Of a stretch of 64,000 bases of DNA, positions 15,001-46,044 are shown piece by piece. The stretch spans positions 254,588 through 318,587 of the forward strand of contig CAZVUO010000001.1 of NCBI GenBank assembly GCA_964630235.1, in the 5' to 3' direction. Each line of letters starts with the position of its first letter. The first letter of the stretch is position 1. The notes under the pieces are model-generated. The model had not been told where the DNA came from, ran no database searches, and was given only the letters and a program-made list of their open reading frames with translations. Origin of the DNA: an uncultured bacterium. Its GTDB lineage: Bacteria > Oederibacteriota > JAAXVQ01 > JAUVAV01. The position numbers and the translations under genes are program-made.

Positions 15001-16524
15001 GGTCTTGATCCCGAAGGGGGTAACGGTATAGGACACCCGTTTCCCGTCCTGGGTGGCGCCGTAGGTGGTTACCTCCATCACCCCGCTGTTCTTGATCATG
15101 ACCTTGCGTTCGGCCAGCTTGGTTTTCTGGTCGTACTCGGTCAAGGTGCGGCTTTTGTAATCCCGGGTGACGCTGGAAACCATGTTGTTGTTGTCGTCAT
15201 ACGTATATTCCGTGACTTCGTCCCCAACTTGGCTGCGGATCCGGTTGCCCTTGCCGTCGTAGGCGTAGTCCGTCCGCTGCCCGTTGCTGTCGGTCTTGCT
15301 CAACAGGTGGCCTTTGCCGTCAAAGGTCTTCTTCACCGTATCCGTGAAGACTTTGCCGCCGAAGGAGTACGTGACGTATTCAATCGCCGAAACAACGTTT
15401 CCGTTTTCATCCAAGATATTGCTGATCTTGGTCTTGCGGCCTTCCTCCTCCAGCCCGACGACCCGGCCGGCCTCGTCGTAATACGTCACCTTCTCCTTGG
15501 TTTTTGATCCATCGGCCGGTTTGAGTAATTCACGCCGGGCGGTAATCCGCCCGTCCACGTTGACCTCGTAGGTATAATTGTGCTCGCCGTCCTTGTCCTG
15601 CACCCTGACCACGCGGCCCTGGTCGTCGTAATCCTTGACCGTGATGTCCTCGATCATGCCGCTAGCGGTGGCGACCTGCTTGATCTCCTTCTTTTGCGCC
15701 AGAACGCCCTTTTCGTTCAGGATGTTCTCATAGGTGGTCTTCTGGCCGTTCTCGATCTGTTCCACCATCTGGTCGTTCTCGTATTTCTTGATCGTGATAT
15801 TTCCCGCCGTGTCCCGTTCTGTGGTCTGGATCTTCTCCCCTTGCTGGTTGTACAGCGTTTCAATGTCCGTGCGGATGTTGTTCTCGTCAATGCGGGCGAC
15901 CACTTCGCCGTTCACGGGGTCCAGGATCATGCGGTTGGTTTTATTCGTGGCGAGATCGGTTTCGGTGTAGCCGACGGTCTTGCCCTTGTCGTTCTTGACG
16001 TAGTTGGTGAATATTTTGGTCCCCTGGGAATCCGTGGCTTGGACCGGATTGCCGTCGTCGTCAAAGATCTTCGTGACCACGCCGGCCGCGCTGCGTTTCA
16101 CCATTTTTTGCAGTTTCCCGTTGGCGCCGCGGAAATACTGGTAGCGCGCCAGGACACCGCCGGTGGCGTCCCGCTCCTCCGACGGCATCCCATCTTCGTA
16201 AAGGGTAACTTTGCCGTAGGGATCACGCACTTCCGTTAGCTGTCCCTTCTCGTTATACTTACGCACCTCGCCGCTCAACAGCACGACCGTGATTTGGGGT
16301 TGGCCGCTGACATCCATGACCGTCGTGCTTTTTACTTTTTTGCCTTGCTCATCCAACTGCTCCAGTATCTGAGGCAGGAGGCGCTCCTCGGCGCTACTGG
16401 CGGCAGAGGACATAGAAACCCCTACAAAGAGGAGCAGCGTCCCCAGTAGGGCGAGTGTCCCCAGCCAGGCGGTTTTATTCCACAGTCCAAAATGCATCCG
16501 TTCTTGACCAGTGATGGTAATCAT
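1..16524 (-). CDS. Giant RHS/YD-repeat family surface or secreted protein. The 3' end is cut by the window edge (at least 5508 codons present).
   Basis: Hand translation of the minus frame whose codon first bases fall on coordinates divisible by 3. ATG at 16524 is preceded by AAAGGGGG 8 nt upstream. The N-terminus MITITGQERMHFGLWNKTAWLGTLALLGTLLLFVGVSMSSAASSAEE is a hydrophobic signal/anchor. Classic YD motifs occur, e.g. TDYAYDGKGNRIRSQVGDEVTEYTYDDNNNMVSSV at about 15170-15280. The frame was re-checked at 13983, 11982, 4863 and 1-60 and stays open. No minus ORF in this frame appears in the track, as expected when the stop lies outside the window. Confidence 0.85.
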   Translation of the reverse strand, partial: MITITGQERMHFGLWNKTAWLGTLALLGTLLLFVGVSMSSAASSAEERLLPQILEQLDEQGKKVKSTTVMDVSGQPQITVVLLSGEVRKYNEKGQLTEVRDPYGKVTLYEDGMPSEERDATGGVLARYQYFRGANGKLQKMVKRSAAGVVTKIFDDDGNPVQATDSQGTKIFTNYVKNDKGKTVGYTETDLATNKTNRMILDPVNGEVVARIDENNIRTDIETLYNQQGEKIQTTERDTAGNITIKKYENDQMVEQIENGQKTTYENILNEKGVLAQKKEIKQVATASGMIEDITVKDYDDQGRVVRVQDKDGEHNYTYEVNVDGRITARRELLKPADGSKTKEKVTYYDEAGRVVGLEEEGRKTKISNILDENGNVVSAIEYVTYSFGGKVFTDTVKKTFDGKGHLLSKTDSNGQRTDYAYDGKGNRIRSQVGDEVTEYTYDDNNNMVSSVTRDYKSRTLTEYDQKTKLAERKVMIKNSGVMEVTTYGATQDGKRVSYTVTPFGIKTTIYRDSQSDQPEKVIYSKYNGKVITTDYEYAGEHLVRSTEEGPMGVTETLYNAAGKPLQSLQTDKWGRTQQTDFQYEKGVLSQSLMIDKKGETHTFYNSHGDPEKITRINTIGFPRRSDEERTYKDGILIKSVSRDVKGETITEFDQNEQAKKTHRINKHGFPREHWVENIYDAGGDLTESRQTDSRGYTINKFDHDGLMTESERVDIHGYPKRKKTTYDYLNGELVSSITDDDRGTTYNTFDKDGLMKESRRVKKYGFPREERTTYEYDANAYMVYSKTEDENGTTQNWFNIDELVAVSFRHNLYGHARDQWTVNEYDNDGFLSMSKETDLRGSTVTKFNIDGLPIESFRTDHYGVEFSRETLTVNEFDDQGFMTVSKSKNLLTTVEKTMDRDALVQEQKQNDNYGVLFGRYKVTEDYAYDGHGRLQTNVTTDRLGQTTSTYDIHGDAVESLRIATIGLGASRESFTVATYNSDTGMTTDRLSKSNYGTTHSTNFDPVTGLESLQQISNNYGLGATRYTENEVEMDTRHGLTRHTLAKNEYGKTETHYDVEQGGVYGIAVSSRAVTNFGLGFTRDTATAIEADINTGLNKRTKAANKYGMTMTEFDTTAGGTYGVAISSITENYFGLGSTRQSQIRKGDLTVNLWNGLNQHTLSRSEYGTTETWYEDGQYGVAKASDTKNNFGLGASRHSWIKEGNLQVNTFNGLNIRTFSESAYGTTETKYDDKQFGVAKSSDTNNNFGLGATRHSWIGDGNLEVNTDNGLNKRTLSESAYGTTETWYEDEAYGVAKRSDTNNKFGLGATRHSWISEGNMEVNTWNGLTRRTLSESAYGTTETKYEDSQYGVATSSDTKNNFGLGATRHSWIAEGNLQVNTFNGLNIRTLSESAYGTTETWYDDSQFGVAKASDTNNNFGLGATRHSWIKDGNMEVNTFNGLNIRTFSESAYGTTETWYEDGQFGVAKASDTNNNFGLGATRHSWIKDGNMEVNTFNGLNIRTFSESAYGTTETWYEDGQFGVAKASDTNNNFGLGATRHSWIKDGDMEVNTWNGLNIRTFSESAYGTTETWYDDKEHGVAKSSDTKNNFGLGATRHSWISEGNMEVNTFNGLNIRTFSESAYGTTETWYDDEEHGVAKSSDTKNNFGLGATRHSWIKEGNMEVNTYNGLNIRTFSESAYGTTETWYEDGQYGVAKSSDTNNNFGLGATRHSWIKEGNMEVNTYNGLNIRTFSESAYGTTETWYDDGQYGVARASDTNNNFGLGATRHSWIKNGNMEVNTWNGLNIRTFSESAYGTTETWYEDGQYGVAVASDTNNNFGLGATRHSWIKEGNMQVNTWNGLNIRTFSESAYGTTETWYEDGQFGVAVASDTNNNFGLGATRHSWIKEGNMQVNTWNGLNIRTFSESAYGTTETWYDDGQYGVAKASDTNNNFGLGATRHSWIKEGNMEVNTYNGLNIRTFSESAYGTTETWYDDGQYGVAKASDTNNNFGLIATRHSWIKEGNMQVNTWNGLNQRTFSESEYGTTETWYEDAQYGVAVASDTNNNFGLGATQHSWIKRGNMAVNTWNGLNQHTFSESAYGTVETWYEDKQHGVAKASDTNNNFGLGATRHSWIKEGKMEINTWNGLNIRTFSESAYGTVETWYDDAQYGIAKASDTVNNFGLGATRHSWIKEGEMEVDPYNGLNKRTFSESAYGTTETQYENETYGVAKSSDTNNNFGLGATRHSWIEEGNMEVNTWNGLNQHTFSESAYGTVETWYDDVSYGVARSSDTNNNFGLGATRHSWISDGNLEVNTWNGLNIRTFSESEYGTVETWYEDQQYGVAQSSDTNNNYGLGATRHSWISKGNMEVNTWNGLNIRTFSESAYGTVETWYDDKDYGVAHSSDTNNFFGLGATRHSWISKGNMEVNTWNGLNIRTFSESAYGTVETWYDDAAYGVAKSSDTNNNFGLGATRHSWIKEGNMEVNTFNGLNIRTFSESAYGTVETWYSTDSYGVAERSHSLNNFGIGATRDTTTQIDANRWNGLNIYTKATNDYGMTETWYTEDSYGVADRSHSLNNYGIGATRDTTTDIDTDTWDGLTEHTLAENAYGMTETWYTQDSYGVAERSHSLNNYGLGATRDTNTTIQVDTWNGLNEYTRAVNAYGMTETWFTQDSYGVAERSHSVNNYGLGATRDTNTIIQAGQWDGLNDYTLATNAYGTTETWYSDDTYGVAERSHSLNNFGIGATRDTNTTITADRWDGLNDYTYAVNVYGTTETWYSQDTYGVAERSHAMNNFGIGATRDTTTDIQADRWDGLNEYTMAVNAYGMTETWFSEDTYGVAERSHAVNNFGLGATRDNQTTIQADRWDGLNEYTFGTNAYGTTETWFSEDSYGVAVRSHSLNNFGLGATRDTNTTIDADRWDGLNNYTHAVNAYGMTETWYSDDTYGVAERSHAVNNYGIGATRDTNTIITADRWDGLNDYTIGTNAYGVTETWYSQDSYGVAERSHAVNNFGIGATRDTATTIQADRWDGLNEYTLATNAYGMTETWFSEDTYGVAERSHAVNNFGLGATRDTMTTIQADRWDGLNEYTFATNAYGTTETWYSQDTYGVAERSHSLNNFGLGATRDNLTTIQADRWDGLNEYTFGTNAYGTTETWYSDDTYGVAERSHAMNNYGLGATRDTNTVITADRWDGLNDYTISQNAYGVTETWYSQDTYGVAERSHAVNNYGIGATRDTNTVITADRWDGLNDYTIATNVYGMTETWYSQDTYGVAERSHAVNNFGIGATRDTNTVITADRWDGLNEYTFATNAYGTTETWYSQDTYGVAEQSHSLNNFGLGATRDTTTTIQADRWDGLNEYTFASNAYGITETWYSEDTYGVAERSHSLNNFGIGASRDTNTTIQADRWDGLNEYTHAVNAYGMTETWYTDDTYGVAERSHSLNNFGIGATRDTNTVITADRWNGLNDYSIGTNAYGMTETWFTQDSYGVTERTHTVNNYGLGATRDTTTQVTADTWNGLNTYSVATNAYGMTETWYARDTYGVPERSHSLNNFGLGATRDTNTTITADRWNGLNDYTFATNAYGTTETWYTQDSYGVAERSHSLNNFGLGATRDTNTTVQADRWSGLNTYTFATNAYGTTETWYTQDSYGVAERSHSLNNFGLGATRDTNTTITADRWNGLNDYTVATNAYGRTETWYKQDSFGTAERSHSVNNFGVGAGRDTTTAITADNWNGLNTYTNAVNAYGVTETWYSQDSYGVAERSHSLNNFGLGATRDTNTTITADRWNGLNTYTNATNAYGRTETWYSQDSYGVAERSHSLNNFGLGATRDTNTTITADRWNGLNTYTNATNAYGRTETWYSQDSYGVAERSHSLNNFGLGATRDTNTTITADRWNGLNTYTNATNAYGRTETWYSQDSYGVAERSHSLNNFGLGATRDTNTTITADRWNGLNTYTNAVNAYSTTETWYSQDTYGVAERSHSLSNFGLGATRDTNTTVTADRWDGLNDYTIASNAYGTTETWYSQDTYAVAERSHSINHYGLGATRDTTSTITADRWNGLNTFTVGVNAYGTTETWYSQDTYAVAERSHSVNNYGLGASRDTNTTITADRWNGLNTYTNATNAYGRTETWYASDSYGVAERSHSVNNFGLGATRDSNTTVTVDRWSGLNTFTSSVNAYSTTETWYSQDTYGTAQRSHSMNNFGLGATRDTNSTITADTWSGLNVYTTGTNAYGTTETWYSQDTYGVAERSHSVNNFGVGAGRDSNTTITADRWNGLNTYTHAVSAYGRTETWYAQDTYGVATRSHAVNNFGLGATRDTDTPTIQANRWNGLNEYTFARNAYGTNETWYSRDSYGVAERSHAVNNYGLGATRDTNTTITADRWSGLNTYTSAVNRYGTSETWYTGDSYGVAQRSHAVNNYGLGATRDTNTTITVDLWSGLNTFTSSVNAYGTTETWFKQDTYGTAQRSHSLNNYGLGYTRDTNTTITADNWSGLNTFTSGRNTYGLTETWYSGDGYGVAERSHSVNNFGLGYTMDTNTTITANRDSGLNEHTFATNQYGTTDTYYSRDTYGVAERSVAHNQWGVLGERDITTTITANRQTGLNEKTIAVTSHRTTTTFFEGSYGTATSSISVTDFLPTLAQTTNTTITASHDTGLNIRTVADNGLSTTTTDAFDAKYGVAKHMLTYNKYATGEGNRNVETNVDANTNTGLNMETYSRSYGGGGTLSETWTNYTSDTGTQTDAITVMNAAWTLGYSVNNNITYVVNQTTGKLIQSTSVNSNGTTMTNYDGHGLAIRSENISSYGLASRTNSTMTYNSATGFTQRSVALSYSRLGGQLLSTTTTNHDINGIARSMTTDTTYGASRARTSTTTVSTIYDFTGSKKQTYTTTGLGDSTSDYNQMGVEMYSVSNGTIGPTAGRTSYTWTKDWNQNTGIRRSKYTTSGLSRTWTYSDENGLPAAGLHKQNENFYGSAAGARYSEIYRTGAVHWTGNAAQTRSLSPGHSTTMTNYDADGFNTNSVTDSIYGANGMQHTESTYNVDSSTGMNTSSNMVKCNGRGSTKNEYDATYGVVKESDDTDKDGNVTHTTYGFNTATGMTTSTVSTGEGGYREDNTAYDMHGRKTASRTQRDKQDGKKKKTEIYTSTFVNNDWTGFKQTETRTNVQNSENKVIHYDVHGVEYKNWTEDYKYPTGEVIHVTEYTGRDADGNPTAGTQEFSGDRHTMSVQMSGIVPSPDPDKYMYLPTVSRVTYTQATYITTATFSYTLNSRGPIAATVTDNQGTESWTMDEGYENSAIFTRNRRNNDGSSISWNYTDSPEGRFHTSANITYTDYMGLHNGSGTETYTDTGVLTQRVLNNTDTMNQTITFQNDGQYVTTGTGTREDGESVNYVFGGVNEYVTFEDDKGITTWNQSTQKMLTSSGGVGSFTYTYAGARVDKIEGTSARDGKLLMDKWWNVKTWTDSMGVLHTYTGTAQNKGYWTKAHETFTDKGGGQWQGDMNYDAFGFYFKGGELRGVKAKVDATGAKNTVDMDDALATTNI
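2600..9075 (-). repeat. In-frame tandem array of 162-bp (54-aa) units inside giant gene 1, about 40 copies.
   Basis: The word ggtgtcgcgcgtcgcgcc recurs at 4783 and 4945 (162 bp apart). Unit consensus is YSQDSYGVAERSHSLNNFGLGATRDTNTTITADRWNGLNTYTNATNAYGRTETW. It shares the NNFGLGATR and AYG-TETW cores with the 57-aa unit. The switch between unit types is at about 9070-9080. Confidence 0.9.
9075..13650 (-). repeat. In-frame tandem array of 171-bp (57-aa) units inside giant gene 1. About 23 regular copies (9075-13090) plus degenerate copies up to about 13650.
   Basis: The word cttggccacgcc recurs at 11950 and 12121 (171 bp apart). Unit consensus is YEDGQFGVAKASDTNNNFGLGATRHSWIKDGNMEVNTFNGLNIRTFSESAYGTTETW. 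Older copies (NYGLGATRYTENEVEMDTRHGL...) are visible toward 13650. Confidence 0.9.
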
Positions 16525-16984: not shown

Positions 16985-18646
16985 ATGACTTACTCCGACA
17001 CTCCATTACAGCCGGGGTGGAGGCCGATTCACGGACTGGGATTGGCCGCCGGCGCCGGAATTCTGCAGGCCCTCTGTTTCCCCAATTTTCTTTATGCTGG
17101 ATATTCCCCCTGGCACAGCGTGCTGGCTTGGATAAGTTTCATACCATATATATATGTCTGGCGGCGTTGCCGCGCGGCCAGCGCTTTTGGGTACGGCTGG
17201 GTGATGGGATTCATCTATTTTACCGGCACGCTCACTTGGATCCGCCTGATCGGCCGCAACACCAACATTGACAATGCCGTTGCCTGGCTGTTTTTCGCTT
17301 TTTGCGGCGGGGTGTATTTCGGTCTCTTCGGCCTGTCAGCGCGGTGGGTGAAAGACCGTCTGCGCTGGCCGGATGCCGTCCTGCTACCCCTGTCATTCGT
17401 CGCCTGGGAATACCTGCGCGGTCATATTCTGACCGGCGGCTGGCCGTGGGGCAGTCTGGGCGCCACCCAATATGCCAGCTGGCCGGTTCGGCAATTGGCC
17501 TCCGTGGTTGGCGTCAGCGGCCTCTCTTTTTTGATTCTCGCGGGAAATGTCTGGCTCCTGGATGGCGGCCAAAGGCTCTGGCGCTTTCTGCGCCGGCGGG
17601 AGCCTCTCGTGCCGCGCGGGAGTTGGCGGGACGAATTGAAGCAGCGGCCTGCGGCAGCGGTCGCGGTCAGCGTACTGGCCCTGCTCTGGAGCGTCGCCGT
17701 GGCCATCGCGGTGATTGAAGCCGCGGCCTTCGCGCGCGTTCCCCGCGGCGAGGTGTCACTGGCGTTGTTGCAAGGCAATCTCAATACCCGCCAGCGGTGG
17801 GACCGCGTCTACCGCGAAGCGGCCATGGACCGCATGCGCGCGCTGCATCTGGAAGCTGCTGCCGGTCAGCCGGACCTGATCGTGTGGGCCGAATCCTGCT
17901 TTCCCGGCATCCTGGAGTACCCTCCCTTGCAGGAGTGGGAAGACCGCCTGCGCGCCTTGATCCGGGAGGCAGGCGTGCCCACGCTGCTCACCAGCAACGA
18001 GTACGCGCGCGAGCAAGACCTGGACAAACCCATGTCCTGGCACCATTACAACAGCGCCTTCTACTTCGGCGTTCAGGGACAGACCCTGGGCCGCTATCGC
18101 AAACTCCGCCTGGTGCCGTTCGGCGAATACATCCCGTACGCGTTCCTCAAGCGTTACCTGCAAACAGTGGTCCAACAGCCCATTCCGGTCGATTTCGAGC
18201 CGGGTGACGACTTTACGGTCTTCCCCTTGGGCGATTGGGGGTTCTCGGTATTGATTTGTTACGAGGACATGTTCGAAGAACTGGGGTACCAGCTGGCCAA
18301 GGCCGGCGCGGATTTCTTCCTGAGCGTCGCCAACAACAGCTGGTCCGGGCAATCGGAGATGAGTTACCAGCACAACGCCATGTCGGTCTTTCTGGCCGTT
18401 GAGCACCGCGCCTACATTGCCAAAGCCGACATGACCGGCCCCACGGTCGTGATCGATCCCTGGGGCCGAATCGGCGACGCCTCGCCGTTCTTCGTTCCGG
18501 CGGTCAAGCAGGAAACGATTTATCCAGCCAAATTCACAACTTTTTTCACGCGCTTCGGGAATGTTTTGCCTTTCGCCTTCACACTCTGGTTTTTCGGCCT
18601 CTGCGCCGCCTGTGTTCCGCGGCGCCGGCTTTCTTCCACAAAATAA
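16985..18646 (+). CDS. lnt: Apolipoprotein N-acyltransferase, copy 1.
   Basis: 553-aa ORF. It has an N-terminal polytopic membrane domain (WEYLRGHILTGGWPWGSLG) and a C-terminal CN-hydrolase domain with Glu/Lys/Cys triad contexts LIVWAESCF, YRKLRLVPFGEYIP and SVLICYED. Confidence 0.9.
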   Translation: MTYSDTPLQPGWRPIHGLGLAAGAGILQALCFPNFLYAGYSPWHSVLAWISFIPYIYVWRRCRAASAFGYGWVMGFIYFTGTLTWIRLIGRNTNIDNAVAWLFFAFCGGVYFGLFGLSARWVKDRLRWPDAVLLPLSFVAWEYLRGHILTGGWPWGSLGATQYASWPVRQLASVVGVSGLSFLILAGNVWLLDGGQRLWRFLRRREPLVPRGSWRDELKQRPAAAVAVSVLALLWSVAVAIAVIEAAAFARVPRGEVSLALLQGNLNTRQRWDRVYREAAMDRMRALHLEAAAGQPDLIVWAESCFPGILEYPPLQEWEDRLRALIREAGVPTLLTSNEYAREQDLDKPMSWHHYNSAFYFGVQGQTLGRYRKLRLVPFGEYIPYAFLKRYLQTVVQQPIPVDFEPGDDFTVFPLGDWGFSVLICYEDMFEELGYQLAKAGADFFLSVANNSWSGQSEMSYQHNAMSVFLAVEHRAYIAKADMTGPTVVIDPWGRIGDASPFFVPAVKQETIYPAKFTTFFTRFGNVLPFAFTLWFFGLCAACVPRRRLSSTK

Positions 18647-18701: not shown

Positions 18702-21700
18702 CTAAGCCGCGCTGCCTGTGGTCTTCAGCTTGGGCTGTTTCTGGAGCGGCGTCACGTCCAGCTTAATGCCGATGCCCAGCCCTTCCAGCCGCTTGATGAT
18801 CCGGCCCAGCTTGTAGTCCTGGGTCAGCGCCCGCGGCACCACCTCGGGGGTCAGGGTCACGGCCAGCTCGTCCGCGTACCTTTTGTAGGTCAGACTGATG
18901 TTGAAGCCTAGGAAGCCCAGCACCTGGGCCAGGTCTTTGGTCAGCGCCAGTTTTTGATCCATGCTGGCATCCGATTCGGCCACGGTCAGCAGGTGTTCCA
19001 CCGTCGCCCGGATCGCCCGGTTCCGCATGGTCTCCGACACCATCTGCTCGGTGCCGGCGATCCTCAGCCCCTTGACCGCCTTGGTGAAATACGGATCCGA
19101 CAGCAGGGTGGGTAGCATGATCTTCCGGTAGGTCTCATAGCTGGTCCCATACTGCGCGGCGAAGCTCTTCCTCTGCTCGAACTCCCTGGTTCCCGAGAGC
19201 TGCGCGATCCGCCGCGCGTCCGCTTCCATCCGCGGGTTGGAAGACCCAAACGCGGCGTGCGCGATCTGCTCTTCCACCGCGGCAGACGGGTTCAGGTTGA
19301 ACGCGATGGCTCTGGCCCGCATCCAGGTGGCCGCGCCGGCCAGGGCCAGAATCACACCTGCCCCAATTGCCAGGGCGGGCAGCACGCCGCTGGAAAGACC
19401 GAAGACCAACCCCACGACCACTGCCATGGCGATCCCGGCTCCAACCATCTGCTGGGCCATACTGCGCACCGTGAGCAGCGGCCTCTCGGCCTGCCGCAGG
19501 CGGTCCTCGCCGGCGATCAGGCCCAGAAGTTGCTGCTGCACAGGGGTTTTCTGCAGTTTGCGGTACTCGGCGTAGGAGAGGCCGAACGTCGCCTCGAACG
19601 CCTCCTCCTGCAGCCGCCGCTCGTCCCCCGCCGGCAGGCGCTGGATGTCCACGGCTTTGGCTTTCATCAATCCGAAGCCCGTGTTCTCCAGCTCCCCGGC
19701 CGCTTCAGTCAGGTCCCGCAAATCCCGCTCGCCGTATTCGCGTCCCATAACCCCGCGCACCTGCTGGTAAATAGCACGCAACTTTTCGTCCTGGCTCGCC
19801 AGCGCCTTGAGGTTCTCGCCGTCGGCCACGAATTGACGGAGGAATTCCGTCAGTGCGTTGCTGCCAAATTCCTTGAACAGACGGTGCTGGCTCAAGGACT
19901 CGGTCAGTGAACGCGCGTGCGTATCGTCAAACAAACGCATGGACACCGCCTGCAGCGTTTGCTTCAGCAGGGTGTCGCTGAATTTCTGGTCCAAGAACTG
20001 TATAGATCCCCGATCCACCTTCAATCCCGCTTTATCGGAAACCGTGGGTTTGGCGGCGGTCTGGCCCAATTCCACCCGGTCCATGCTTTCCGTGGCCTTC
20101 GGCACCAGGCTCAGGATCGCGGCCAGCATGTGCATATAGCCGTAGTACCCGGCTGACTTGTCCGCGGCCAGCTCGATCTGGCGCTCGGCCAGCAGATCTT
20201 TCAGCTCGGCCACGGCCTTGGTGTCGTCCAGAGAGCCGGCCATGCGCCCTTTCCACTCCTCCACCAGCGTTCTGCCGGCCCGCACGGCCTGGCTCGCCAC
20301 TTCCGCCTCCCGGGCCTCGGGTTCGTTCACCACCACCCGCTGCTCCAGCGGCACCCGGACGCGCAGCACGTGCGGCACCACCTCGCTGTTGACCATGCCG
20401 ATCGCGCTGCCCACGCCCCCGGCCAGCCCTGCCACCAGGAAGGTCGGCAGCAGGCCCAGCGCCGCGCCGGCCACTTTGCCCAGAGAGGACCTGCCCGGCG
20501 TTTGCGCCTGCACGCGCTCCGCGTTCCCTCTGGCCAGTGCCAGAGGCCCTAGCTTCGTCAGCACGGGCGCCAGGACGGTTCCCAGCACCATGGTCCCCAT
20601 CATGGCGGCCAAGGGCAGACCGGCCAGGCTCATCGCCCCGACCAGGGCCGCGCCCAGCACCAGTTTGGTCGCCGTGGCGGGCACCAGCCAGCCGTTCTCC
20701 ACCTTGAAGAAGGCCACCAGCGCCGACGATCTTTCAATGGTTTGCAGCAGATTTTGCCATCCCCGGCCCATGGATACACCCAGCCGGTGCAAGGGGGTCT
20801 GCTGGCTCAGCTCGGCGCCGGCCATCTGCTTGATCGCGGCAGCCTGCGCGGCGATCTCCGTCCGGGCCAGGGTCTCGGCCGGCATGGCCTGCAGGGCCTT
20901 GAAGCTTTCGCCCGTGACCAGACCATAACGGCTGGCCAGGGACTGCGCGGCCGCCACGTTCTCCTGGATATAAGTCCTCGCCTGTTCCAGATTCATCGTG
21001 CGATCCTGATAGGTGATGGTTTTGGCTTCGTCGGCCGCCAGTTCCGGCAGATAGGCGCTAACGCGTTCCGCGTTCTGCAGGGCCTGGTAGTACTGGGTTT
21101 GGGCCTGAGCTGGCTGACGCCAGATCAAAGCGGCTTTTTGTATTGAGGTGCTGGCCTGATCATACGCCTGCAGGAAGGTGACATCGGGTCCAAAGGTCGC
21201 GGCCAGGGCTGGTTGTACCCAGTTATCCCCATATTGTTTAATATAGCCGGACACTTGCTCCGTGTGGACTTGACGCCAGGCCTCACTGTTGAAGTTGGCC
21301 TGCATTTCCCGCAGATTCATAACCGCCTGCTGGGTCAGCATGGACCTGGCGTCGAACTGCGACCACACCGGAATTTGGCGCAGGAAAGCGCTGCCCGCGT
21401 TCAGACCCGCCAGTTGGATCGGCTTCGAGACCTGGGGCAGCTGGTCCGTGGCGAACACGACACCGCTCCCGGCCGCAACGTTGTTCTGGCTGGGCATGAA
21501 CGCCAGGTTGTATTGCAGTAATTTAACAGCTTCCGTGTAGGTGGGCGCCATAGCGATCCGCGCCGTAGCCTGATCCACGCCCAGGTTAGAGGCCGCCATG
21601 GCCATTGCCGCGGTGTCATAGGATTTTATTTCGCCCAGGAAGCGGTGGCTTTCCTGCCAGGCCTGCTGGAAGGACTTGACCTCGGCCCGGCTGGGCACGC

Positions 21701-24700
21701 GGTTGTTCACCACCGCTTCCTGGATCGCGACCGCCTGGTTTTGCAGCTTGGCCGCCTCGATGCCGCCAGGATTCTGGGACAGCACATTTTCCATTAGGTG
21801 CAGGCCCACGGAGTACATCTGTTTATACTTCAGGGTCCCGCCTTGGGTGATATCGGCAAAACTGTAATTTTCCATGGCCACGGGGCTGGCTCGCACCACA
21901 CTGGAGGCCCGCGCGAGTTCATAGTAGTTCCCCATGCTTTGCAGGACGAGCCGGAACCCTCCCCGGAAGAAATTCTGCGGCAGGATGGATTGCATCAGCA
22001 CGCCGCGCCACACGCTCCGCGCCTGGCTCAAACTGCTCAGGAAAGTGCTCTGCACGTAATTCCGGTTGACGATTTGTGGATCCAGGGTGCTCTGGAGCTT
22101 CAGCGCCAGATCCACATTGCCGCTGTGGTCATTTAGAATTCGGCTGAGTTGCCCGTCCAGGATGCGTTGGACGATTTTGTTATCAAACCGCGGGTCCTGC
22201 ATCATGTTTTTCAGGGGCTCAATCACGATTTTGTCCTTGAAGGTGTCCTGCACGGCGAAGCGCGTGGAATTGCCCACCAGTTCGGACTGCCGGTATTCAC
22301 CGTTCAGTTTGAGGGCGAGACCGAGCTGGTGCTGTTGCGTCAAATCCAGCTTGGACAGATCGAGGGAGGATAAAATCTTGGTCAAGTTCCCGAGGTCTGC
22401 GCGGCCGTTGGCTGCGGCTTCCCGGCCCCACAAGGTGGTGACTTCGTTAGCACGCGCCGGGTTTTTCATGGTTTCCAAAGTCGCTTTCACCGCGCTCAAG
22501 TCCACCACCGCATACCGCTGGGTGGCCCAGGTGCCCTGAGGACCACCCGGCCTTCCGGAGCGGAGCAGGAGCTGGGTGAACATATCAGCCGTGAGGCGGT
22601 GCGCGCCCCGGGCCACCAGGGTCAGATCAGCCTGGAAATTCTTGCCCACCGCGGCCTGCTCGTTGAAAATGCAGACCTGCCCCCGGATCTTGCCGATGCT
22701 CTCCACGATGGTCTGAATACCGGCTTTGTCAATCTGCACGTAATCCAGGCCCCTGACCCTGCCATTGAAGGTCTCGGAGGGCATGATCCTGGCGCTCACG
22801 GGAGTGCTGCGGCCGCTGTTGAGCAGCTTGATGAATTCCGCGCCCATGTTCTTCGGCACGAAATAGCCCGCACTGCTGGCGCTGATTACGCTGACCGTGG
22901 GGATGCCGCTCACCTTGCCGGTCATGGCTTTTATATACTGCGATACAAGCTGCATCTGGGCCGTGGGGTCGGCTTCAAAGACCAGAGCGTTGCGCCTCAT
23001 CTCGATCACGGACTTCAGGACCACGGCGTCGGCCGCGGCGAGGTCGGTCAGGATCTTTCCGCCCGTGTTGTAGATATCGCGCTGCAGGTCCAGAAGCGAG
23101 GTGCTGAGGTGGCGGGACCCGGACCCCACCTTGCTCTTCATGAGGTTTTCCAGGCCCGCGATGGTACCCGAAGCGCCCACAATCTGCGCCCCGAAGTTGC
23201 CGGCATACATGGCCGAGAGCGAGGTCTGCATGGTGGTCTGGTTGACCCGCACCGCGGCGTAGGGATCCAGGCCGGCCTTGCGCGCGGCCACCACCTGGCC
23301 CACGATGTCATTGCTGATCTGGTCGAATTGGATTTTGCCCAGATGGTCCACCGGATAGATGTAGTCGCCCTTGACCGCATAGGCGTTGAGCTCCCCGGCC
23401 TTGCCTTGCTGGCTAAAGAGGGTTTTAATGGCCGACGACACGTCCGCACCCTTGAACGTCTTGAACGCCCGCTGCGCCGCGCTGTTTAAGAACACCCCCT
23501 GCTCCGTGATCACGATGGTCTTGGCGGCGCGGAGATTGAGTTCGGTCACGCGGGCATTGCTCAGGTCGTTGACGCGCACCACATCAAACTCACCCAGCCG
23601 GGCTTTACCGGTCTGGCGGAAGGTTTCCGCGATTTGCCGGAACCCAGCCTGGTCGAATTTCAGGGTCTTGAGAATCCCATCCACGGACTTGACCTGGGCC
23701 TCGGTAACCGCTGAAATCTTGCCGCCATGGATGGCATTGGTCTGGCTGGTGGTGGGCATATGCACCTCATCAATGCCCACCAGATTGGAGCGCTTCAGCG
23801 CCAGGTTCAGGTCCGCGTTACGGATGGCATCGTTGCGCAAATGAGCGCGCGTGGTATGGTCAAAGACCAGGGTCCTGCCGGGGTCGTTCAAGGCTTTGAT
23901 CAGTTCGCCGAAATTTCCGGTTTTTTTAGCCTGCGAGTAGAGTGTGTTGCCGTCTACCAATTCCATGCCCATGGCTTTGGCCAGATCCTGATGCGTCATC
24001 TTGGTCTTAAAGGCTTCGTTTAAATATTTATTAATGGCCGGACCATCGTCCACCAGCAGTTCGGCGCGCATGGACTGGCCTTTCAGGATATTCATCATTC
24101 CCGGGAAAAGAATGAAGGCCAGGGTTTTTCCGCCGCCGGCCCTCAAGCCCACGTTGTTGCCCTGCAGGAACTCGGCGATCATCATTTTTTGCGAGAGCCG
24201 CAGGTCCGAGTAGCCGGTCACCCGCTCCACGACCTGTTTCATGTAGCGTTCCACCAGGGTGATGTCCGCGGCTGAGCCCTTGACGAGCTTGCCATCGCTG
24301 ACCAGGCTTTCCCGCAACTTCATGAAAGCGTCAAAGAGCGCCTTGCCGCCCTGCCGGGTCAGGTCGGCTTTGGGAATTTGATCCAGAACCGACTTCAGCT
24401 GGCCGTCATATTGTTTCGCCAGGTTGTTGTATTCAGCCAGCCTGCCGTTTTTGGCCGCGTCGTTGTACACTTTCTCGTAATGCTCCTTCCAAGCCTGTTC
24501 GATGGTCTGCGTCAGGTCCGCGTTGCCCAAGGCCCGCTCGTAACGCTGCAAGTTCTGCACGTCACTGGCGTTGAGCTTCAGCTGCTGCAGCTTGGCCTGG
24601 TAGGAGGCCTCGGCCTGGCGGGCGTGGGTCCCCGCCTCGGTTACGGCCCGACCGCTGGCTTTGAGCTGGGTTTCGGAAGCCCCCTGGCGTTTGAGCAAAG

Positions 24701-27700
24701 TATGGTTGTTACGAAGTTCGATCTGCACGTCCCTCAACTTCAGCATGTTTTCGCGCAGGGTCAGCAGGTTGTTGACCTCCTGCTTCGCGGACTCGGCATC
24801 GAGCCGGTTGTTTTCCCGCACCTTGTTCTCCACCCGTTGTTTCAAATCCATGATCTGTTTAATGTCCTGCGCCCGGCCGATCTCGATCTGCTGGCTGGTC
24901 TCGGCTAGGCCTTTCCTCAGAAGAATGGTTTCGGGCAGCATGGAGGTGACCAGACCCTTGACTCCGCCGCGAGCCTGCCAGCGGGCCGCCAATTCGCCCA
25001 CCCCGCGGCTAGCCGCGGGTTTGATCTCAGCCAAGCGTTCCACCCGCGCCAGTCGGTTGGTTGCCGCCTCCAGAGCCCGGGCCGCGGAACGCTGGGCACG
25101 CAGGGACGTGGCCTCGTTGTACTTGACCACTGCCTGGCTATGGGCCTGTTTGGCCGTCAGGAGCTGATGGGTGCGCTGGAGCAAGGCCTTGACATTAGCC
25201 ACGGACCCCTGGGACAGTTGCTCGCTCAAGGCGAGGGGCTTGGCTGGGGTTTCCGCACCGGATGCGGTCTTGGCCTGGCCCTGAATCTCGGCGAGCGGCT
25301 GGCCGGCCTTGGCCTTGCGCAGGTTCAAGAGCATCTCGGCCGGGTTTTGGGATGTCAAAAGCTGCTGCAGTTCCTGTAATGATAAATTCCGGGACAACTC
25401 ACGGAAGGTTTGGTTCCGTGCGCGGCCGTCGCGCATGCCGCCGTCCCGCAGGGCCTGATCAAAACGTTCGCGCAGTAGGGATTCCAAACCCTTTGCGACA
25501 TCCTGGCTCGACCGTCCCTGCAGTTCAGCGACCTTGTTCAAGGTGCGTTGATTGGCCTGGTATTCGGCCTGGGCCCCCTGACGATTCAACAGCTTGCTGC
25601 TGCCGCCGCGCTGCAGGTCAAATATCGTATCCAGGGCCGTTTCCAATTGGCCGGGTGTTATCTTTCCGGAAATCGGCTGGACCTGGCCTTTCAAGCCCAA
25701 CCGCTCGGCCACCGCATTGTGCATCTCCTTGCCGAGGTTGATGCCGTTGTGCTCGGCCAATTGATTGAAGAATTTTTGCGCCTGCGCCTGCATGCCGTTC
25801 TTGGCCAGTGACTGCAGGCGTTTCATGCCCTTTTCTCCCTGGAAGAGTTGGCGTACCAATTCGATGGCCGGCGCCTTGCTGGTCATGGCATCCACAATGG
25901 CCTGCTTGAGCATGGCCCGGTCGCCCCTGCCCGCCATTTCTTTCAGCGCTCTGTTCAAATTCCGCTCCAGGGTTCCGCTCCCATCCTCTTTGAGCAGGAG
26001 GTCTTTAATCCTGGCCTGGGTTTCCTGATTCCTGGCTTTTGCCAGGCTTTCCTGGGCCTGTTTGAAGCTCTCCTCCGCTGCCGCCATGCGGCGCTGGACC
26101 AAGCCCTTATTCCGAAGCATGCTGCGCACATCGCCGTCCGAGGTCAGCTTCTCGATCTGCGCGTCCAGATCCGCCAGCTCCCGTTGCGCCCGGACAGCGT
26201 CCACCCTGGCGTCCACCTGCCGCAATTGCTGTTCCAAACGTTCGGCCCGGGCTTTCAGCTCGGCGCGCTGGGGCTTGTTCAGGGTTTTTCGGGCCAGGGC
26301 TTCGGTGGTCTGGGCCAGTTCGGCTCGCACATTCACGCCTTCCAGTTCGGCCTTGGCAATCATGGCTTCAGCCCGCAGGTTGCGGGCCTCGGCCTGGAGG
26401 GACTCCAATTTGCTATCCAAAGCCTTGCGCAGGTCTGCGTTGGCCTTGGTCTTGGCCAAATCTTTGATGGCTTGCCGGGTTTCGGCCATTTGTCCCCGGT
26501 TTTGCTGGGTCCGTGTCTGGGTGTCCTGAATTTTAGCCTCTGCTTTCAAGCGCGCCACCTCGGCCTCGGCCTGTAAGCGGCCAGGCTGCGTCGTCTGGGC
26601 GCTCGCTTTTTGCACGGCGAGTTGAACTCGTACTTCGGCCAAGGAGACGCCCAGGTTCTGGGCCAGGGCCTGCTGGGCTTTGGTGACTTCGCCTCTCAGC
26701 GCGGAAATCGAGCCGCGCGTGGCCTTGGGATTGTTCATTGCCTGCTGCAATTTCGCCTCGGCTTGTGCCACCCGGCTCTCTAAATTCCTGACCGCGGCGT
26801 CTTTTCCGCCCACAGTCCGGCTTTCCGCGCTCCGCGGCACACCTTGGCGCGTTTGCGGCCTCGCCTCGCTTTGCGGCGCTCGAGAAGATTCTGCCGCGGA
26901 CCGTTGCGCGGTCTCGGGCTTGGCAACCGCCGTCTCTCCCATGCCGGTCCGGTAGGCGCCTTCCATCGCCGGCCTGCCGATCACCGCTGAAGTCGTGAAC
27001 CTGGCCGTGGTTGTGCCGGTCAGAACAGTTTTTACCGTCTGCACAGCGCCTTTCACGAATTCGCTGGTGGCTTTAAACACCCGGGTGTTACGAATGTCCG
27101 CGGTCTTAGCCACCCCGGCCTTGGTGGTGTAGTGCACCCGTCCCTGCGCTAAATTAAGCATGGCTTTTCCCGCGTTCCGGAAAATATCAATCTGGTGGAT
27201 GAAGAAGGCCTTGGCAAAAGCCAGGGCAAAGGTGGCCGCGCGAGCGGCCATACTGGACATGACCTTGCCGGGCTGAATGGCCTTATTGAGCGTCTGGGTC
27301 GGGACTTGGCCCGAACCTCTGGCGGTTAAATCGCTGAGGCGGAACTGCCTGGATTGCAGGAGATTCGCGACCTTGGCTGCGCCGCCTGTTTGGCGCAGCA
27401 TGCTATTGAGCGTGCCGTGGTGATTCTGGAATTTAAGTTCCCCGAATTTCATATTATTGATATGCTGTCCCAGTTCCCGCGCCGTGAAACCCGGCTTATT
27501 CAGCGCCGCATCAATGACATCCCCAATCTTCTGTTTGGCTAATTCGCGGGGATTGGCCGCCTGCCGCTGGATATGCTCCGTGATCTTCTTGAACACCATG
27601 TCCTCGAAGAACCGCTGGGCCTTGGCCCACATAGAGCGCATCATCTGGAAAGCAAAGACCACGCCGATCACGCCGCCCGCGATCACGGACACGTTCTCCA

Positions 27701-30700
27701 CCACCACCCGGGTGCGCGAAATGTCCGCATCCAGACTGCTGATGTTCGCCAGACGGTTGATGCCGTCCGCGATCTTGTTGAAGGGTTCAATGAAGAATGT
27801 ACGGAACATGTTGCCCAGGCCGTTGAGGATGGCGTCCTTGGCCAGGAGCACCATGCCAAAGACCGCGAAAGCCGGGCAGACGGCCGTAAGGGCAACCAGC
27901 ACCACCAAAGCCAGATTTTCGCCCAGGGTCTTGAACAGGACGGCATACCCTATGGCCAGGCCGCCCATGATCCGGCCGAAGGTGCTGTCCAGGGCGAAAT
28001 AGTCCTCTGCCATCTGGGTGTATTGTTCGGCTAGCCACAAAATGCCCATGCTGGCGTATTTCAATATGAAGTCCACCGGGATAAATATTTTTTCCACCAC
28101 CCATTTAAACCCGGCCAGGGCCTGTTCGCCGATGGACTCCCCATTGTACAAGTAGAGCCCGACCGCGGCCGGCCAGACCAGGTAATTGACGGACCAGACA
28201 AAAATAAATTCCACGGCCTGCCAAGCTGCGGTCAGGATAAATTCCGCCGCGTAGACCACGGTCTGGATCACCGCCCAAGCGGCCAAGACCAGCGCGCCCA
28301 CCGAATAGACCATGCCCTTAAATTCATTCCACAGCTGGTTTAATAAGCCGCCGGTATAGTGAATATTCATGGCATCGTAAAGGCCGTTTTGGGTGTCCCA
28401 GAAAGAGACCCAGGCTGTGGCCACGCTGTCCGTGAACTTGTGCCAGCCGTTCTTGACCTGTTGCCAGCGTCCAGTCTCGCGCTCACCGGCCGGTGTGTAA
28501 ATTTCCTTCACACCCCGGCTGTCCAGCATGACCACTTTTCCGTCCACCAAACTCACCTGGACATCCTTGCCCAACTGCACTTGGCTCGCGCCGACCACCA
28601 CCGTATTGTTTCCCTCCAGCCGGCCGCCGGCCGTGACCACGGTGGAGATGTTCACGTTGACCTCTTCGCTCAATGCTTTCGTCCGCGTATAGGTATACAC
28701 GCCCGTGTCCGTGCGGCTGAGGGAAACGTTCTCGCCGGCCGCGTTTTTACCCTGCAAGGTGAAGTTCCGCTCGCTCTGCGCCACAGTGAAGACGCCGCCC
28801 TCGCCGGGCTGAATGCGGTTGCCGGCGTCGAGTTGCCGATTTTGGGCGTTGAGGTACTGCTCCTTCATACCCAGTTCGTTCAACTGCCGTGGCGTACCCG
28901 TGGCTACAAAAGTAAAGTTGTTGTCCTTGTCCAGCGTGGCCACGCCCATGGCGCCGTTGCGGGTCTTGCCCTGCATAGACATAACGCCATTACTCTCAAC
29001 AACTGTATATTTCCCATCCGAACCCATAATCTCCTTGCTGGCCGAAGCTCCTTGGTTGTAGCGCTCTGTCAGGTTGTGCTCGCGGATAACCGTGGCCTTG
29101 AGCCCGAGCGCGTCCAGTTTTTTTAGATCCGCCGTGGCCCCGAAGCTGTAGCTCCCGTCTTGGGCCAGGGTGGCAAAAGCCGTGACACCGTCATTTAGCA
29201 CGCCCTGAAGCGTGCGGGAACCGTCCGCGCCCTCCACAATCGTATAGGTATTCCCCTCCCCGGCCTGGATGGTCCGGTCGCTGCCGGGCGCCGGCCCCTG
29301 ATCGGCGCCAAAGAGCCGGGCCAGGAATCCGGGCGTGGCCTCTTCCTTCCAGCGCGCCGCGTCTTTTTGGTTCTGCTCCGTGAGCTTGGTGCCGTCCAGC
29401 CCCAGGGCATCCAACTGAACCTTGGTCCCCGTCGCACCGTAAGTGACCTTGCCATCATTGGACAAGGTCACAAAGGCCGAGGCGCCGTTGGCAGTGGCGC
29501 CCTGTAGGGTCATGGCATCGGTGCTTTCTACCACCGTGTATTCGTTGTCCTTGGCCAGGATGGTGCGCCGGCCGTCATATCCTTGACGCGAATGATTGCG
29601 CAACTCGGTGGCATGCAGACCCAGACGGTCCAGCTTGACCAGACTGGCCGTGGCGCCGAAACTGAACTTGCCGGCCGCGTCCAGGCTGGCGAAAGCCACA
29701 GTGCCGTCAGCCAGCTTACCCTGGAGTGTATCCGCGCCGTCGCTCTCCACCACGGTATAGCGCCCCTCGCTGTCTGCCTGGATCCGACGGGAGTCGGTCC
29801 CGGCCCGGTCATTGCGGTTGGTGGTCACCAGTTCGGTTCCCCGCAGGCCCAGCCGGTCCAGCTTGCCTTCCTGAGCCGTGGCGCCAAAGCTGTATTTGCC
29901 TGTCTTCTTGTCCACCGTGGCGAAGGCCGCGGTGCCATCGTCAAGCATTCCTTGCAGCACGAGGGATTGGCCGCTGTCCACGACGGTCCATTTTCCCTGC
30001 CGCCCCTGAATGGCCCGCGAATCCGTGCCGGCCCGGTCCGCGGCGTTGGTGTTCACCAGGTAACTGCCCCGCAGCCCCAGGGCATCGAGCTGGGCCCTGG
30101 TGCCCGTGGCGCCGAAGGTATATTTGCCGTCCGCGCCCAGGGAGACGAAGGCGTCCGCGCCGTTGGCTGTCTTCCCCTGCAGGGTATACGTCCCATCGCT
30201 GTGGATGACCGTGTATTTACCGTCAACCGTGGATTGGATCCGGCGCGAAACCGTGGCCCCGCCCCGGTCCGCGCTGTTTTGGCGGACCAGCTCTCCTGCC
30301 CTCAAGCCGAGCTCGTTCAGTTGCGAGACAGTGCCCGTGGCGCCATAGGTCAGGCGTCCCTCGGCCGAGAGGGTGGCGAAGGCATCTGCGCCGTTAGCCG
30401 TCCTGCCCTGCAGGGTGTAGACGTCCTGGCTCTCCACGGCCGTGTACTTGCCGTCCTTATCCTGGATGAGACGCGCCCCGGCCTGGCCCTCGGCTGTACT
30501 GTTCCGGAGGTCCGTAGCCCGCAATCCCAGGGCGTCCAGTTTCTCCAGGGAGGCTGTGGCGCCGAAGGTAAAGTGCCCCTCGTTGTTCAGGGTCAGGAAG
30601 GCTAGCGTACCGTCGGCCAGCTTGCCCTGGAGCGTCCGGGTTTCACCCGTATCCAGCACAGTATATTTGCCCTGGTCCGCGGCGATGAGCCGGGAATCAG

Positions 30701-44802: not shown

Positions 44803-44872
44803 GGGAGAATTATAGCACAAGGGTCCGTGTTTGGTGGAGGCCGACCCGGACTTAAGTTCCTCCCAGGGGCCC

Positions 44873-44995
44873 CATGGAGCCCCCCGGGCAAAGCCCGGGG
44901 TACCAACTGCACCTCTCGTTACCTCCTCTGGGCGACATCCCCGGAGCAACCATTCCGCATTCACCCCCAAGGCAAGGGGTGCCCTGCGGAGAGGA
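44873..44995. repeat. Conserved intergenic element, copy A (paired with 50014..50119).
   Basis: 83 of 94 aligned nt are identical to copy B. It contains the hairpin CCCCGGGC-AAA-GCCCGGGG. It lies between the divergent lnt copy 2 and the transketolase N-subunit gene. Confidence 0.7.
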
Positions 44996-45210
44996 TGGCC
45001 GGGGTTCCCTCCCGCAGCAAAAATCATATCCCGCAATTCCATCCCTGGAGCGGTCTTTGGGGTCGCTGAAGCCCGGGGAATTGTGCGGTGGGATCGTTTT
45101 TGGACTCCCTCCGCTTTTCGTTGGGGCGTCCCCGGCCAGGGGCTTTTAACGCTTGACAAAGCCCGGAGGGGTCTAGTACGATTCTCCGCATATTTTCCGG
45201 AGGTTTTTCC

Positions 45211-46044
45211 TTGGCTTTTTCCCTGCAACGCAACCCCGCGCATATCGCCAAACAGGCCATGGTCCTGCGCCGCGACATCGTGTCCATGCTGGGCGCGGCC
45301 GGATCCGGCCATACCGGCGGCTCGCTGTCGTGCGTGGACATCCTCGCCACCCTGTACCTGGCCGAATTGCGGCATGACCCCGCCAATCCCAAATGGCCCG
45401 GGCGCGACCGCTTCATCCTGTCCAAGGGGCATGCCGCGCCGGCTCTGTATTCCGTCCTGGCGCGCACCGGCTATTTTTCGGCTGACCACCTCCCCACGCT
45501 GCGCAGGCTCAACTCCATTTTGCAGGGGCATCCGGACATGAACAAGACGCCGGGCGTGGAAATGTCCACCGGCTCCCTGGGACAGGGCCTCTCCGTGGGC
45601 TGCGGCATGGCGGCCATGGCCTTCGACGCCGCGCGCCGTCCGGCGTACCGGGTGTACGTGCTCCTGGGTGACGGCGAGCTTGAAGAAGGCCAGGTCTGGG
45701 AAGCGGCCATGAGCGCCGCTCATTACCAGCTGGGAAACCTCTGCGCCGTCGTGGACAAGAACGGTCTGCAGATTGACGGCGCGACCTGTTCGGTGATGAA
45801 CTCGGACCCGGTGGATGACAAATGGCGCGCGTTCGGCTGGAACGTGATCGCCGCGAACGGGCATGACTACGGGCAACTGCTGGAAGCCCTGGCCGGCGCC
45901 CGCGCGGAGACCCGGCGCCCCACCGTGATCATCGCGCACACGGTGAAAGGGAAAGGCGTCTCGTTCACGGAGAACCAAGTATGCTGGCATGGCATCGCCC
46001 CGGACAGCGAACAGGTCTGCCAGATGCTGGACGAATTGAAATAA
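45211..46044 (+). CDS. Transketolase, N-terminal (thiamine-diphosphate-binding) subunit.
   Basis: TTG start with GGAGG 7 nt upstream. Motifs are SKGHAAPALY, GSLGQGLSVGCGMA and LLGDGELEEGQVWEA. Confidence 0.9.
   Translation: MAFSLQRNPAHIAKQAMVLRRDIVSMLGAAGSGHTGGSLSCVDILATLYLAELRHDPANPKWPGRDRFILSKGHAAPALYSVLARTGYFSADHLPTLRRLNSILQGHPDMNKTPGVEMSTGSLGQGLSVGCGMAAMAFDAARRPAYRVYVLLGDGELEEGQVWEAAMSAAHYQLGNLCAVVDKNGLQIDGATCSVMNSDPVDDKWRAFGWNVIAANGHDYGQLLEALAGARAETRRPTVIIAHTVKGKGVSFTENQVCWHGIAPDSEQVCQMLDELK

Follow-up and report, generated by a model that had tools for sequence, protein, structure and literature searches.

How proteins of many thousands of residues are made, inserted and exported by bacteria is an open problem, for which the main lead to date is a SecA-type motor built into the protein itself. 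The stretch of DNA analysed here, 64,000 nucleotides (64 kb) of contig CAZVUO010000001.1 from an uncultured bacterium (positions 254,588 to 318,587, called the window below, with all coordinates counted from its first letter), raises the question of whether such a motor resides in a protein for which domain annotation is blank. The minus strand of the window carries a giant open reading frame (ORF) of 8,045 aa with a GTG start (18702-42839), and a Pfam scan of the whole giant protein returns zero domains. An earlier reading, made from the sequence alone, had placed a complete SecA-like translocation ATPase at 22500-24230, corresponding to aa ~6203-6779 on the minus strand. We find that aa 6204-6801 (22437-24230, minus strand) are likely to be a very divergent superfamily 2 (SF2) ATPase of the SecA lineage which comprises the motor core only, that is, the first nucleotide-binding domain (NBD1), an insert where SecA has its preprotein cross-linking domain (PPXD) and the second nucleotide-binding domain (NBD2).

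A motor family within giant proteins

The relatives of the motor became visible when 1.84 billion cluster representatives were searched exhaustively with phmmer, which returned 54 relatives, 34 of them at E<=1e-10. More than half (31 of 54) exceed 2,000 aa, the longest reaching 7,195 aa, and not one is a canonical SecA. The family accordingly comprises at least 54 clusters at 50% identity and is found almost exclusively within proteins of thousands of residues, several of the shorter relatives, such as P0002, being fragments truncated by the ends of contigs. Other searches were less productive: a word-index homologue search with either the domain or the family alignment as query gave nothing at E<=10, scans of genome and metagenome contigs with the motor domain found no relatives, and a contig search with a 5-sequence alignment recovered one fragmentary contig.

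The close relatives P0001-P0005 (~35-55% identity) have the whole C-terminal ~2,000 aa in common with the giant protein (aa ~5963-8045), whereas the distant ones have in common with it only aa ~6200-6950, comprising the ATPase and a module of ~150 aa that follows it. Since the distant relatives keep only these two elements, the ATPase can be regarded as the conserved heart of fast-diverging giant proteins. The family alignment (A1) on which most of the results below depend is made up of 32 homologous segments, almost all of them taken from giant proteins and 18-55% identical to the query, with the modelled motor segment (aa 6204-6801) as its first sequence.

Within the giant protein, in which the motor occurs once and blastp finds no internal repeats (E<=1e-5), the motor lies at 77-85% of the length. 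At least five hydrophobic blocks are found (aa 34-52, 829-951, 4840-5070, 7385-7474 and ~7798-7840), and the motor is situated between the third (27630-28322, minus strand) and the fourth (20418-20687, minus strand), both putatively transmembrane, so that the earlier placement near the C-terminal quarter and between hydrophobic blocks holds good. The very long coiled coil that had been read directly upstream is compatible with a helix-rich stretch poor in Pro and Gly at aa ~5400-6150 (24390-26642, minus strand), a crude heptad score being the sole measure of its coiled-coil character.

Relationship to SecA

When the profile of the family alignment was compared with all 177,635 distinct sequences of the PDB, SecA chains took the top four places, namely those of M. 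tuberculosis SecA2 (4uaq, E=2e-6) and T. maritima SecA (E~4e-6). The matches span motif III through NBD2 to motif VI, with a weaker stretch at motif I, and the next SF2 protein is Hel308 (1.6e-3), followed by XPB, RapA, Mfd and Mss116. Likewise, a local hmmsearch with the same profile scored a Paenibacillus SecA at 28.9 bits and a Virgibacillus SecA2 at 25.4 bits.

Profile-profile alignment with hhalign required a separate comparison set, since the homologues found with E. coli SecA were all 89% identical to it or more and hence unsuited to a profile; 13 diverse SecA/SecA2 sequences were therefore taken from tblastn matches in PLSDB records mislabelled as plasmids. In local mode the family profile aligns with this set at a probability of 97.2% (E=3.8e-11, 365 columns), running continuously across the insert from query 4-437 to E. 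coli SecA 78-473, and in global mode at 99.0% (E=2.5e-17), with query 1-598 matched to E. coli 75-632. A profile of only 4 SecA sequences gives E=2.7e-8 with the span of the local run, whereas one of 4 E. coli DEAD-box proteins gives 4.5e-6 over 134 columns, ending at motif II, together with a separate match at motifs V-VI (3.4e-3). Against E. coli Rep the value is 2.8e-3, and against E. coli DinG 6.5e-3, the latter at motif VI.

A third line of evidence comes from structure prediction. With the family alignment as sole alignment and no templates, AlphaFold2 gives a model with a predicted local distance difference test (pLDDT) score of 83.8 and a predicted TM-score (pTM) of 0.68, and in a Foldseek search of the PDB the top five matches of this model are all SecA (5EUL, 3IQY, 2IBM, 4YS0 and 6GOX, 1.9e-11 to 6.8e-8). 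Subsequent matches, from 9e-7 downward, are to MDA5, LGP2, Dicer (~1e-6), DinG, UvrB, RecQ and XPD. In three independent tests (PDB profile search, hhalign and Foldseek) SecA therefore comes out ahead of all other SF2 families, with E values that place the match far outside chance, and it is solely this family-profile and structure-level evidence which rescues the assignment made from the sequence alone.

Motifs and parts of the motor core

The first part of NBD1 (23754-24230, minus strand, aa 6204-6362) contains a conserved Gln and motifs I, Ia, Ib and II. Motif I, the Walker A element LRAGGGKT (24123-24146, minus strand, aa 6232-6239), has its Lys at K6238, equivalent to K108 of E. coli SecA, and the G-K-T is kept in at least 90% of the family. 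Motif II, the Walker B element DEVH (23760-23771, minus strand, aa 6357-6360), aligns D6357/E6358 with D209/E210 of SecA; the Asp and Glu are invariant in 32 of 32 family sequences and the His is kept in at least 90%. The conserved Gln, likewise kept in at least 90%, stands 21 residues ahead of the Walker A Lys, a spacing identical in SecA; in DEAD-box and RecQ proteins the corresponding distance is 23. One Pro and one Gly are also invariant in the alignment.

Between motifs II and III lies an insert of ~187 aa (23193-23753, minus strand, aa 6363-6549) at the position occupied in SecA by the PPXD. Its stem elements are alignable in order. The strand leaving NBD1 (TSQTNAIHGG in the giant protein, T..T.AIIGG in the family consensus) corresponds to ARTPLIISG in SecA. 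The last hairpin and helix of the insert (YIYPVD..G...ND..GQ..A in the giant protein) align with IIVDE.TGR..SDGLHQA.EA, and the family consensus I.P..G....D..YQ..A with IVDE.TGR...SDGLHQA.EA. Finally, the strand re-entering NBD1 (TTMQTSL) pairs with QTLASIT of SecA, the family consensus VS.T.MQT.L aligning with ENQT.A.IT.Q. Motif III follows as SGT (23163-23171, minus strand, aa 6557-6559) against TGT 391-393 of SecA, with T6559 equivalent to T393 and the Thr at least 90% conserved; in the family this motif is of the type (S/T)GT, not SAT. Taken together, the Gln spacing, the insert-stem strands and the (S/T)GT motif are, as far as sequence comparison goes, SecA-specific signatures without counterpart in generic helicases.

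The end of NBD1 together with NBD2 (22506-23192, minus strand, aa 6550-6778) is the source of the significant matches of the family hidden Markov model (HMM) to SecA and SecA2 chains. It includes the motif V region (22635-22676, minus strand, aa 6722-6735), in which VCIFNEQAAVGKNF aligns with VTIATNMAGRGTDI of SecA and N6726 and G6732 are conserved, and motif VI, QLLLRSGR (22551-22574, minus strand, aa 6756-6763), whose Q6756/R6760/R6763 correspond to Q570/R574/R577 of SecA and are invariant across the family. Because the residues for ATP binding and hydrolysis are conserved, an active ATPase is predicted, and the motor core is, to judge from its residues, probably catalytically competent.

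Much of this had been recognised in the sequence-only reading. The five peptides which it quoted are exact, in the stated order and on the minus strand of the giant ORF: RAGGGKTLAFILFPG (24143-24099, aa 6233), GIDEVHMPTTSQTNAIHGG (23777-23721, aa 6355), VKGDYIYPVDHLGKIQ (23375-23328, aa 6489), VRVNQ...GASGT (23252-23163, aa 6530) and QLLLRSGRPGGPQG (22574-22533, aa 6756). The E. coli SecA strings given for comparison agree with the real gene (NC_000913 secA) save for one residue (QGDAG, not QGDPG). All the residue pairings proposed are reproduced by the profile-profile alignment, including VKDGEVIIVDEHTGR=VKGDYIYPVDHLGK and those of K108, D209/E210, QTLASIT, T393 and Q570/R574/R577 given above. 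The Walker A Lys and the Walker B Asp-Glu, the loss of which would have spoken against a SecA motor, are retained on careful alignment. This recognition of motifs was both correct and non-trivial, standard annotation missing the domain entirely.

The case against the assignment and the missing parts of SecA

A considerable number of observations weigh against a SecA-type motor and have to be set beside this evidence. The curated models at issue are SecA_DEAD (PF07517), SecA_PP_bind (PF01043) and SecA_SW (PF07516) of Pfam and secA of NCBIfam, and the motor segment has no match to any of them at E<=1, nor any other significant match in the two libraries; similarly, the SecA models match none of 42 relatives (32 aligned and 10 full-length). 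The sequence-only reading had named a lack of SecA profile hits, and a best match to some other SF2 helicase, as results that would count against it, and at the level of Pfam and of single sequences both were found, the best match of the segment among PDB sequences in phmmer being DDX18, an SF2 helicase, at E=0.5. BLASTP of the segment against E. coli SecA gives E=0.11, in the Walker A region, and AlphaFold is uninformative from the single sequence (pLDDT 39.6).

Nor are the profile and structural results without blemish. The family HMM gives E. coli SecA a score of ~0 bits, its significant matches being limited to SecAs with a short NBD2, whereas those with a long NBD2 variable region give none, and in the reciprocal direction an HMM of the 13 SecA sequences finds nothing significant among individual family members. 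At equal depth the hhalign margin of SecA over DEAD-box proteins is only ~2 orders of magnitude; this numerical margin is modest, and the qualitative gap is nevertheless clear in the alignments, in that only SecA is alignable across the insert. The Foldseek TM-scores are also modest (0.37-0.46); values of this order are to be expected where three domains move relative to one another, but they mean that the match is not tight. Where SecA has R509, the Arg of motif V, the giant protein has V6731 and the family consensus Thr, the motif reading V-G-K-N where SecA has R-G-T-D, with Asp changed to Asn in its subclade; in SecA this Arg is required for ATPase activity. Finally, crude transmembrane counts give an ambiguous parity for the side of the membrane on which the motor lies, cytoplasmic or not.

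The insert deserves separate consideration. By itself (model residues 158-347) it matches the SecA PPXD only at E~0.4 and in the wrong place, and its middle part likewise gives no match. Subregions that include a flanking motif do better: with motif II, model residues 150-200 align with SecA 206-248 (E=0.016), with motif III, residues 270-375 align with SecA 330-398 (E=0.0066), and the region 150-375 as a whole gives E=4.8e-4 against SecA (330-397) and 0.097 against DEAD-box proteins. That the insert is a true PPXD is inferred from where it lies, from the conservation of its stems and from the margin by which SecA exceeds other helicases in Foldseek score.

In contrast to these core elements, the 600 aa after the motor (34 sequences) align with the SecA alignment in hhalign only at E=0.3 and non-collinearly, with no similarity to the scaffold, the wing or the two-helix finger. 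The ATPase had been described as complete; this is not supported, since only a motor core of NBD1, insert and NBD2 is retained, while the scaffold, wing, two-helix finger and C-terminal tail are undetected. Since neither scaffold nor two-helix finger is detectable, the pushing mechanism of canonical SecA cannot hold unchanged. The comparison also indicates that scaffold, wing, two-helix finger and motif V Arg are dispensable parts of SecA, while the catalytic core and the insert stems are kept.

In the place of the SecA translocation domains the family has a conserved module of its own (21870-22322, minus strand, aa ~6840-6990, ~150 aa), with the consensus S..F.V.DT.RD..VI.PLK ... VLN ... AD ... 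SFA.A, which accompanies the motor in nearly all members, including the distant ones, and whose profile (A2) matches neither SecA nor anything in the PDB or Pfam. This module might stand in functionally for the SecA scaffold. Motor and module together form a compact unit of ~800 aa which is open to biochemistry.

Possible modes of action

SecA holds its polypeptide in a clamp between PPXD and NBD2, as seen in SecA-SecY structures such as 3DIN and 5EUL. By analogy, the motor of the giant protein would be cytoplasmic and tethered between the two transmembrane blocks which flank it, and ATP-driven opening and closing of a clamp formed by NBD2 and the insert could grip and move an extended polypeptide, the most economical substrate being the giant protein itself or a partner. 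The membrane segments of the giant protein would then take over the anchoring which is provided for SecA by SecYEG and lipid binding. A self-contained export machine is, on this analogy with SecA, plausible. A bolder version would regard the family as an ancient offshoot of SecA, unseen by curated models and distributed over several uncultivated phyla, in which scaffold, wing and finger have been swapped for the new module and the protein translocates itself in cis and independently of SecYEG through its own membrane blocks; such a far-reaching scenario we consider unlikely, if worth stating.

A serious, though less likely, rival is that the motor, albeit derived from SecA, no longer translocates polypeptides and instead uses ATP to switch conformation or to work as a mechanical device, which could move or put tension on the helical region and the membrane blocks or remodel or extract a bound partner. 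The absence of the SecA translocation domains and the presence of a new conserved module with the motor would fit this picture, as would the loss of the motif V Arg, the long helix-rich stretch directly upstream and the conservation of the C-terminal ~2,000 aa as a unit in the close relatives. Against it stands the retention of the insert, which in SecA is the substrate clamp, with conserved stems, a fact most easily explained by continued gripping of a polypeptide, and no positive evidence points to another substrate.

Other origins for the motor

Quite improbable is the proposal that the motor is an ordinary SF2 helicase or translocase of the DExH/DEAD type acting on nucleic acids, which has acquired an insertion and has no specific relation to SecA. 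The Walker B sequence DEVH would be at home in such an enzyme, and the best single-sequence match in the PDB is, as noted above, DDX18. Among the 32 aligned relatives the only library matches are weak and generic, to DEAD in 8 (best 9e-5), to Helicase_C in 6 and to ResIII in 3, with sporadic matches to RecG, Mfd and Cas3, and those to DEAD and Helicase_C are below threshold; the giant protein itself has no DEAD or Helicase_C match in Pfam. The hhalign value against DEAD-box proteins (4.5e-6) is significant. This last match is however no argument against SecA, because the DEAD-box and SecA profiles match one another at 2e-7 in a reference comparison. What speaks against the helicase is that SecA outranks all helicases of the PDB by both sequence profile and fold, that the DEAD-box alignment stops at motif II where the SecA alignment proceeds across the insert and motif III, and that the SecA-specific signatures are kept (T..T.AIIGG, the D..YQ..A helix, T.MQT, and SGT in place of SAT). 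A giant membrane-embedded protein would in addition be an odd host for a nucleic-acid helicase. A defence-helicase reading based on PADLOC was dropped, only 3 weak Cas3/DpdE matches being found among the 32 sequences.

There is still less to recommend the notion of a decayed, catalytically dead remnant serving as a structural spacer: the degenerate motif V (V-G-K-N) and the extreme sequence divergence could be read in this way, but in 32 sequences of 18-55% identity the G-K-T, the Asp-Glu pair, the motif III Thr and the Gln and two Arg of motif VI are either invariant or kept in at least 90%, and no other part of these giant proteins is as well conserved as the motor. An SF2 enzyme of the XPD/DinG or UvrB kind with a large insertion in its first RecA domain, suggested by Foldseek matches at 6e-6 to 5e-5 (TMq up to 0.43) and by the Arch domain of XPD/DinG-type enzymes, which also lies between motifs II and III, is effectively refuted, those matches being at least 5 orders weaker than that of SecA, such enzymes being absent from the sequence-profile matches, the hhalign value against DinG being poor and confined to motif VI (6.5e-3), and an Fe-S cluster being impossible with only 1 Cys in the domain and 4 in the whole 8,045-aa protein.

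Genomic context

The gene upstream of the giant gene, on the same minus strand, encodes a fusion of 1,283 aa (43183-47034) in which apolipoprotein N-acyltransferase (Lnt) forms the C-terminal part behind ~760 unannotated N-terminal residues, and which ends 343 bp before the start of the giant gene; it is itself preceded by a gene for a GAF-domain protein (47041-48651, minus strand). The Lnt fusion and the giant gene may constitute an operon in which lipoprotein acylation is tied to the giant protein. A second Lnt gene (16985-18646, plus strand) is convergent with the giant gene and faces its 3' end. Further away, a protein with the C-terminal sorting domain of type IX secretion (Por_Secre_tail) and an adjoining OmpA-family protein are encoded at 53336-54361 and 51491-53320 (minus strand), the former hinting that the organism has a type IX secretion system, and enzymes of the heptose/lipopolysaccharide type are encoded elsewhere in the window. 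Several large ORFs belong to no Pfam or NCBIfam family (4174-6144, 8788-12699, 12760-14616 and 14752-16239 on the plus strand and 56843-59335 on the minus strand; 656, 1,303, 618, 251, 219 and 830 aa).

No sec gene (secY/E/G), no accessory Sec gene (asp, gtf, secY2), no tRNA and no Rfam match is found in the 64 kb of the window. The neighbours of a homologous giant gene on contig Ga0101938_1000412 show no similarity to those in the window, and thus no conserved neighbourhood is apparent. The plus-strand AT skew is negative over positions 1-42000 of the window (-0.1 to -0.35), and is not a simple coding-strand effect because it holds over both the plus-strand genes (1-18.6 kb) and the minus-strand giant gene. 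As regards the source of the DNA, the transaldolase encoded at 59519-60205 (minus strand) is 86% identical to its counterpart in JBFLYH010000002.1, a metagenome-assembled genome of candidate division FCPU426, all others being at most 65% identical, so that the DNA most probably comes from within FCPU426 or from a near relative, not from Omnitrophota.

Comparison with known systems

The concept of a SecA motor within a giant protein is already known. SecA_DEAD and SecA_PP_bind domains lacking scaffold and wing have been described near membrane anchors in giant proteins of Omnitrophota and of some Actinobacteriota, and self-export was proposed for them (West-Roberts et al. 2023, bioRxiv 10.1101/2023.11.21.568195); a cluster of giant-protein architectures with PF07517 has also been reported (Nielsen & Lui 2026, bioRxiv 10.64898/2026.06.07.730766). 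The motor described here resembles these domains in combining a motor with an insert of the preprotein-binding type, in the absence of scaffold and wing, in its C-terminal location near transmembrane anchors and in its very long branches. It differs in that the published domains are recognised by Pfam (PF07517/PF01043), whereas the present protein and its 42 relatives are not, in the size of the host protein (8 kaa against >30 kaa), in the DEVH of Walker B, the loss of the motif V Arg and the conserved ~150-aa module after the motor, and in the host organism, a relative of FCPU426 instead of Omnitrophota. The Pfam-negative status suggests at least a separate subfamily, the comparison with the Omnitrophota domains being one of published descriptions only.

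With canonical SecA, such as that of E. coli, B. subtilis and T. maritima (5EUL, 3DIN, 2IBM), the motor has in common the order NBD1-insert-NBD1-NBD2, the helicase motifs and catalytic residues, the Gln-Lys spacing, the insert stem strands and a motif III of the TGT type. It is nevertheless only ~14-19% identical, lacks the helical scaffold domain (HSD), the helical wing domain (HWD), the two-helix finger, the C-terminal tail and the motif V Arg, and has an unrecognisable insert core; and whereas canonical SecA is a soluble protein of ~900 aa, the present motor is fused inside a multi-pass membrane protein. SecA2, a reduced and specialised SecA paralogue for particular and often very large substrates, provides the best HMM match (4UAQ, 2e-6); it is however free-standing, keeps the scaffold and is caught by the SecA models of Pfam and NCBIfam, none of which applies here. 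DEAD-box and DExH helicases, for their part, share with the motor the pair of RecA-like domains as well as motifs Q, I, Ia, Ib, II, V and VI, yet lack any insert separating motif II from motif III, carry SAT as motif III and rank below SecA by fold and profile.

Other reduced forms of SecA are known. Short SecA-like proteins of ~620-650 aa from alphaproteobacterial plasmids, and a Legionella protein, likewise consist of, or contain, an NBD1-PPXD-NBD2 core without the C-terminal SecA domains, but these short or embedded forms are detectable by BLAST with E. coli SecA at 25-43% identity, which the present family is not; in the reverse direction, the family HMM scores the Mesorhizobium short SecA-like protein at only 18.7 bits and leaves the Legionella protein unmatched. 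The latter is a hypothetical protein of 2,947 aa encoded on the Legionella geestiana plasmid NZ_CP041715.1 (13.8 kb, coding sequence 453-9296), with a region 25% identical to E. coli SecA 98-602. Some of the short plasmid homologues, which are alphaproteobacterial and clostridial, are annotated as 'DEAD/DEAH box helicase', and some stand beside genes of the HlyD family or for prepilin peptidase. What is new in the present case is a divergent family of such motors, invisible to the curated models and equipped with a module of its own, and its occurrence outside Omnitrophota indicates that motors of this kind are more widespread than domain annotation suggests.

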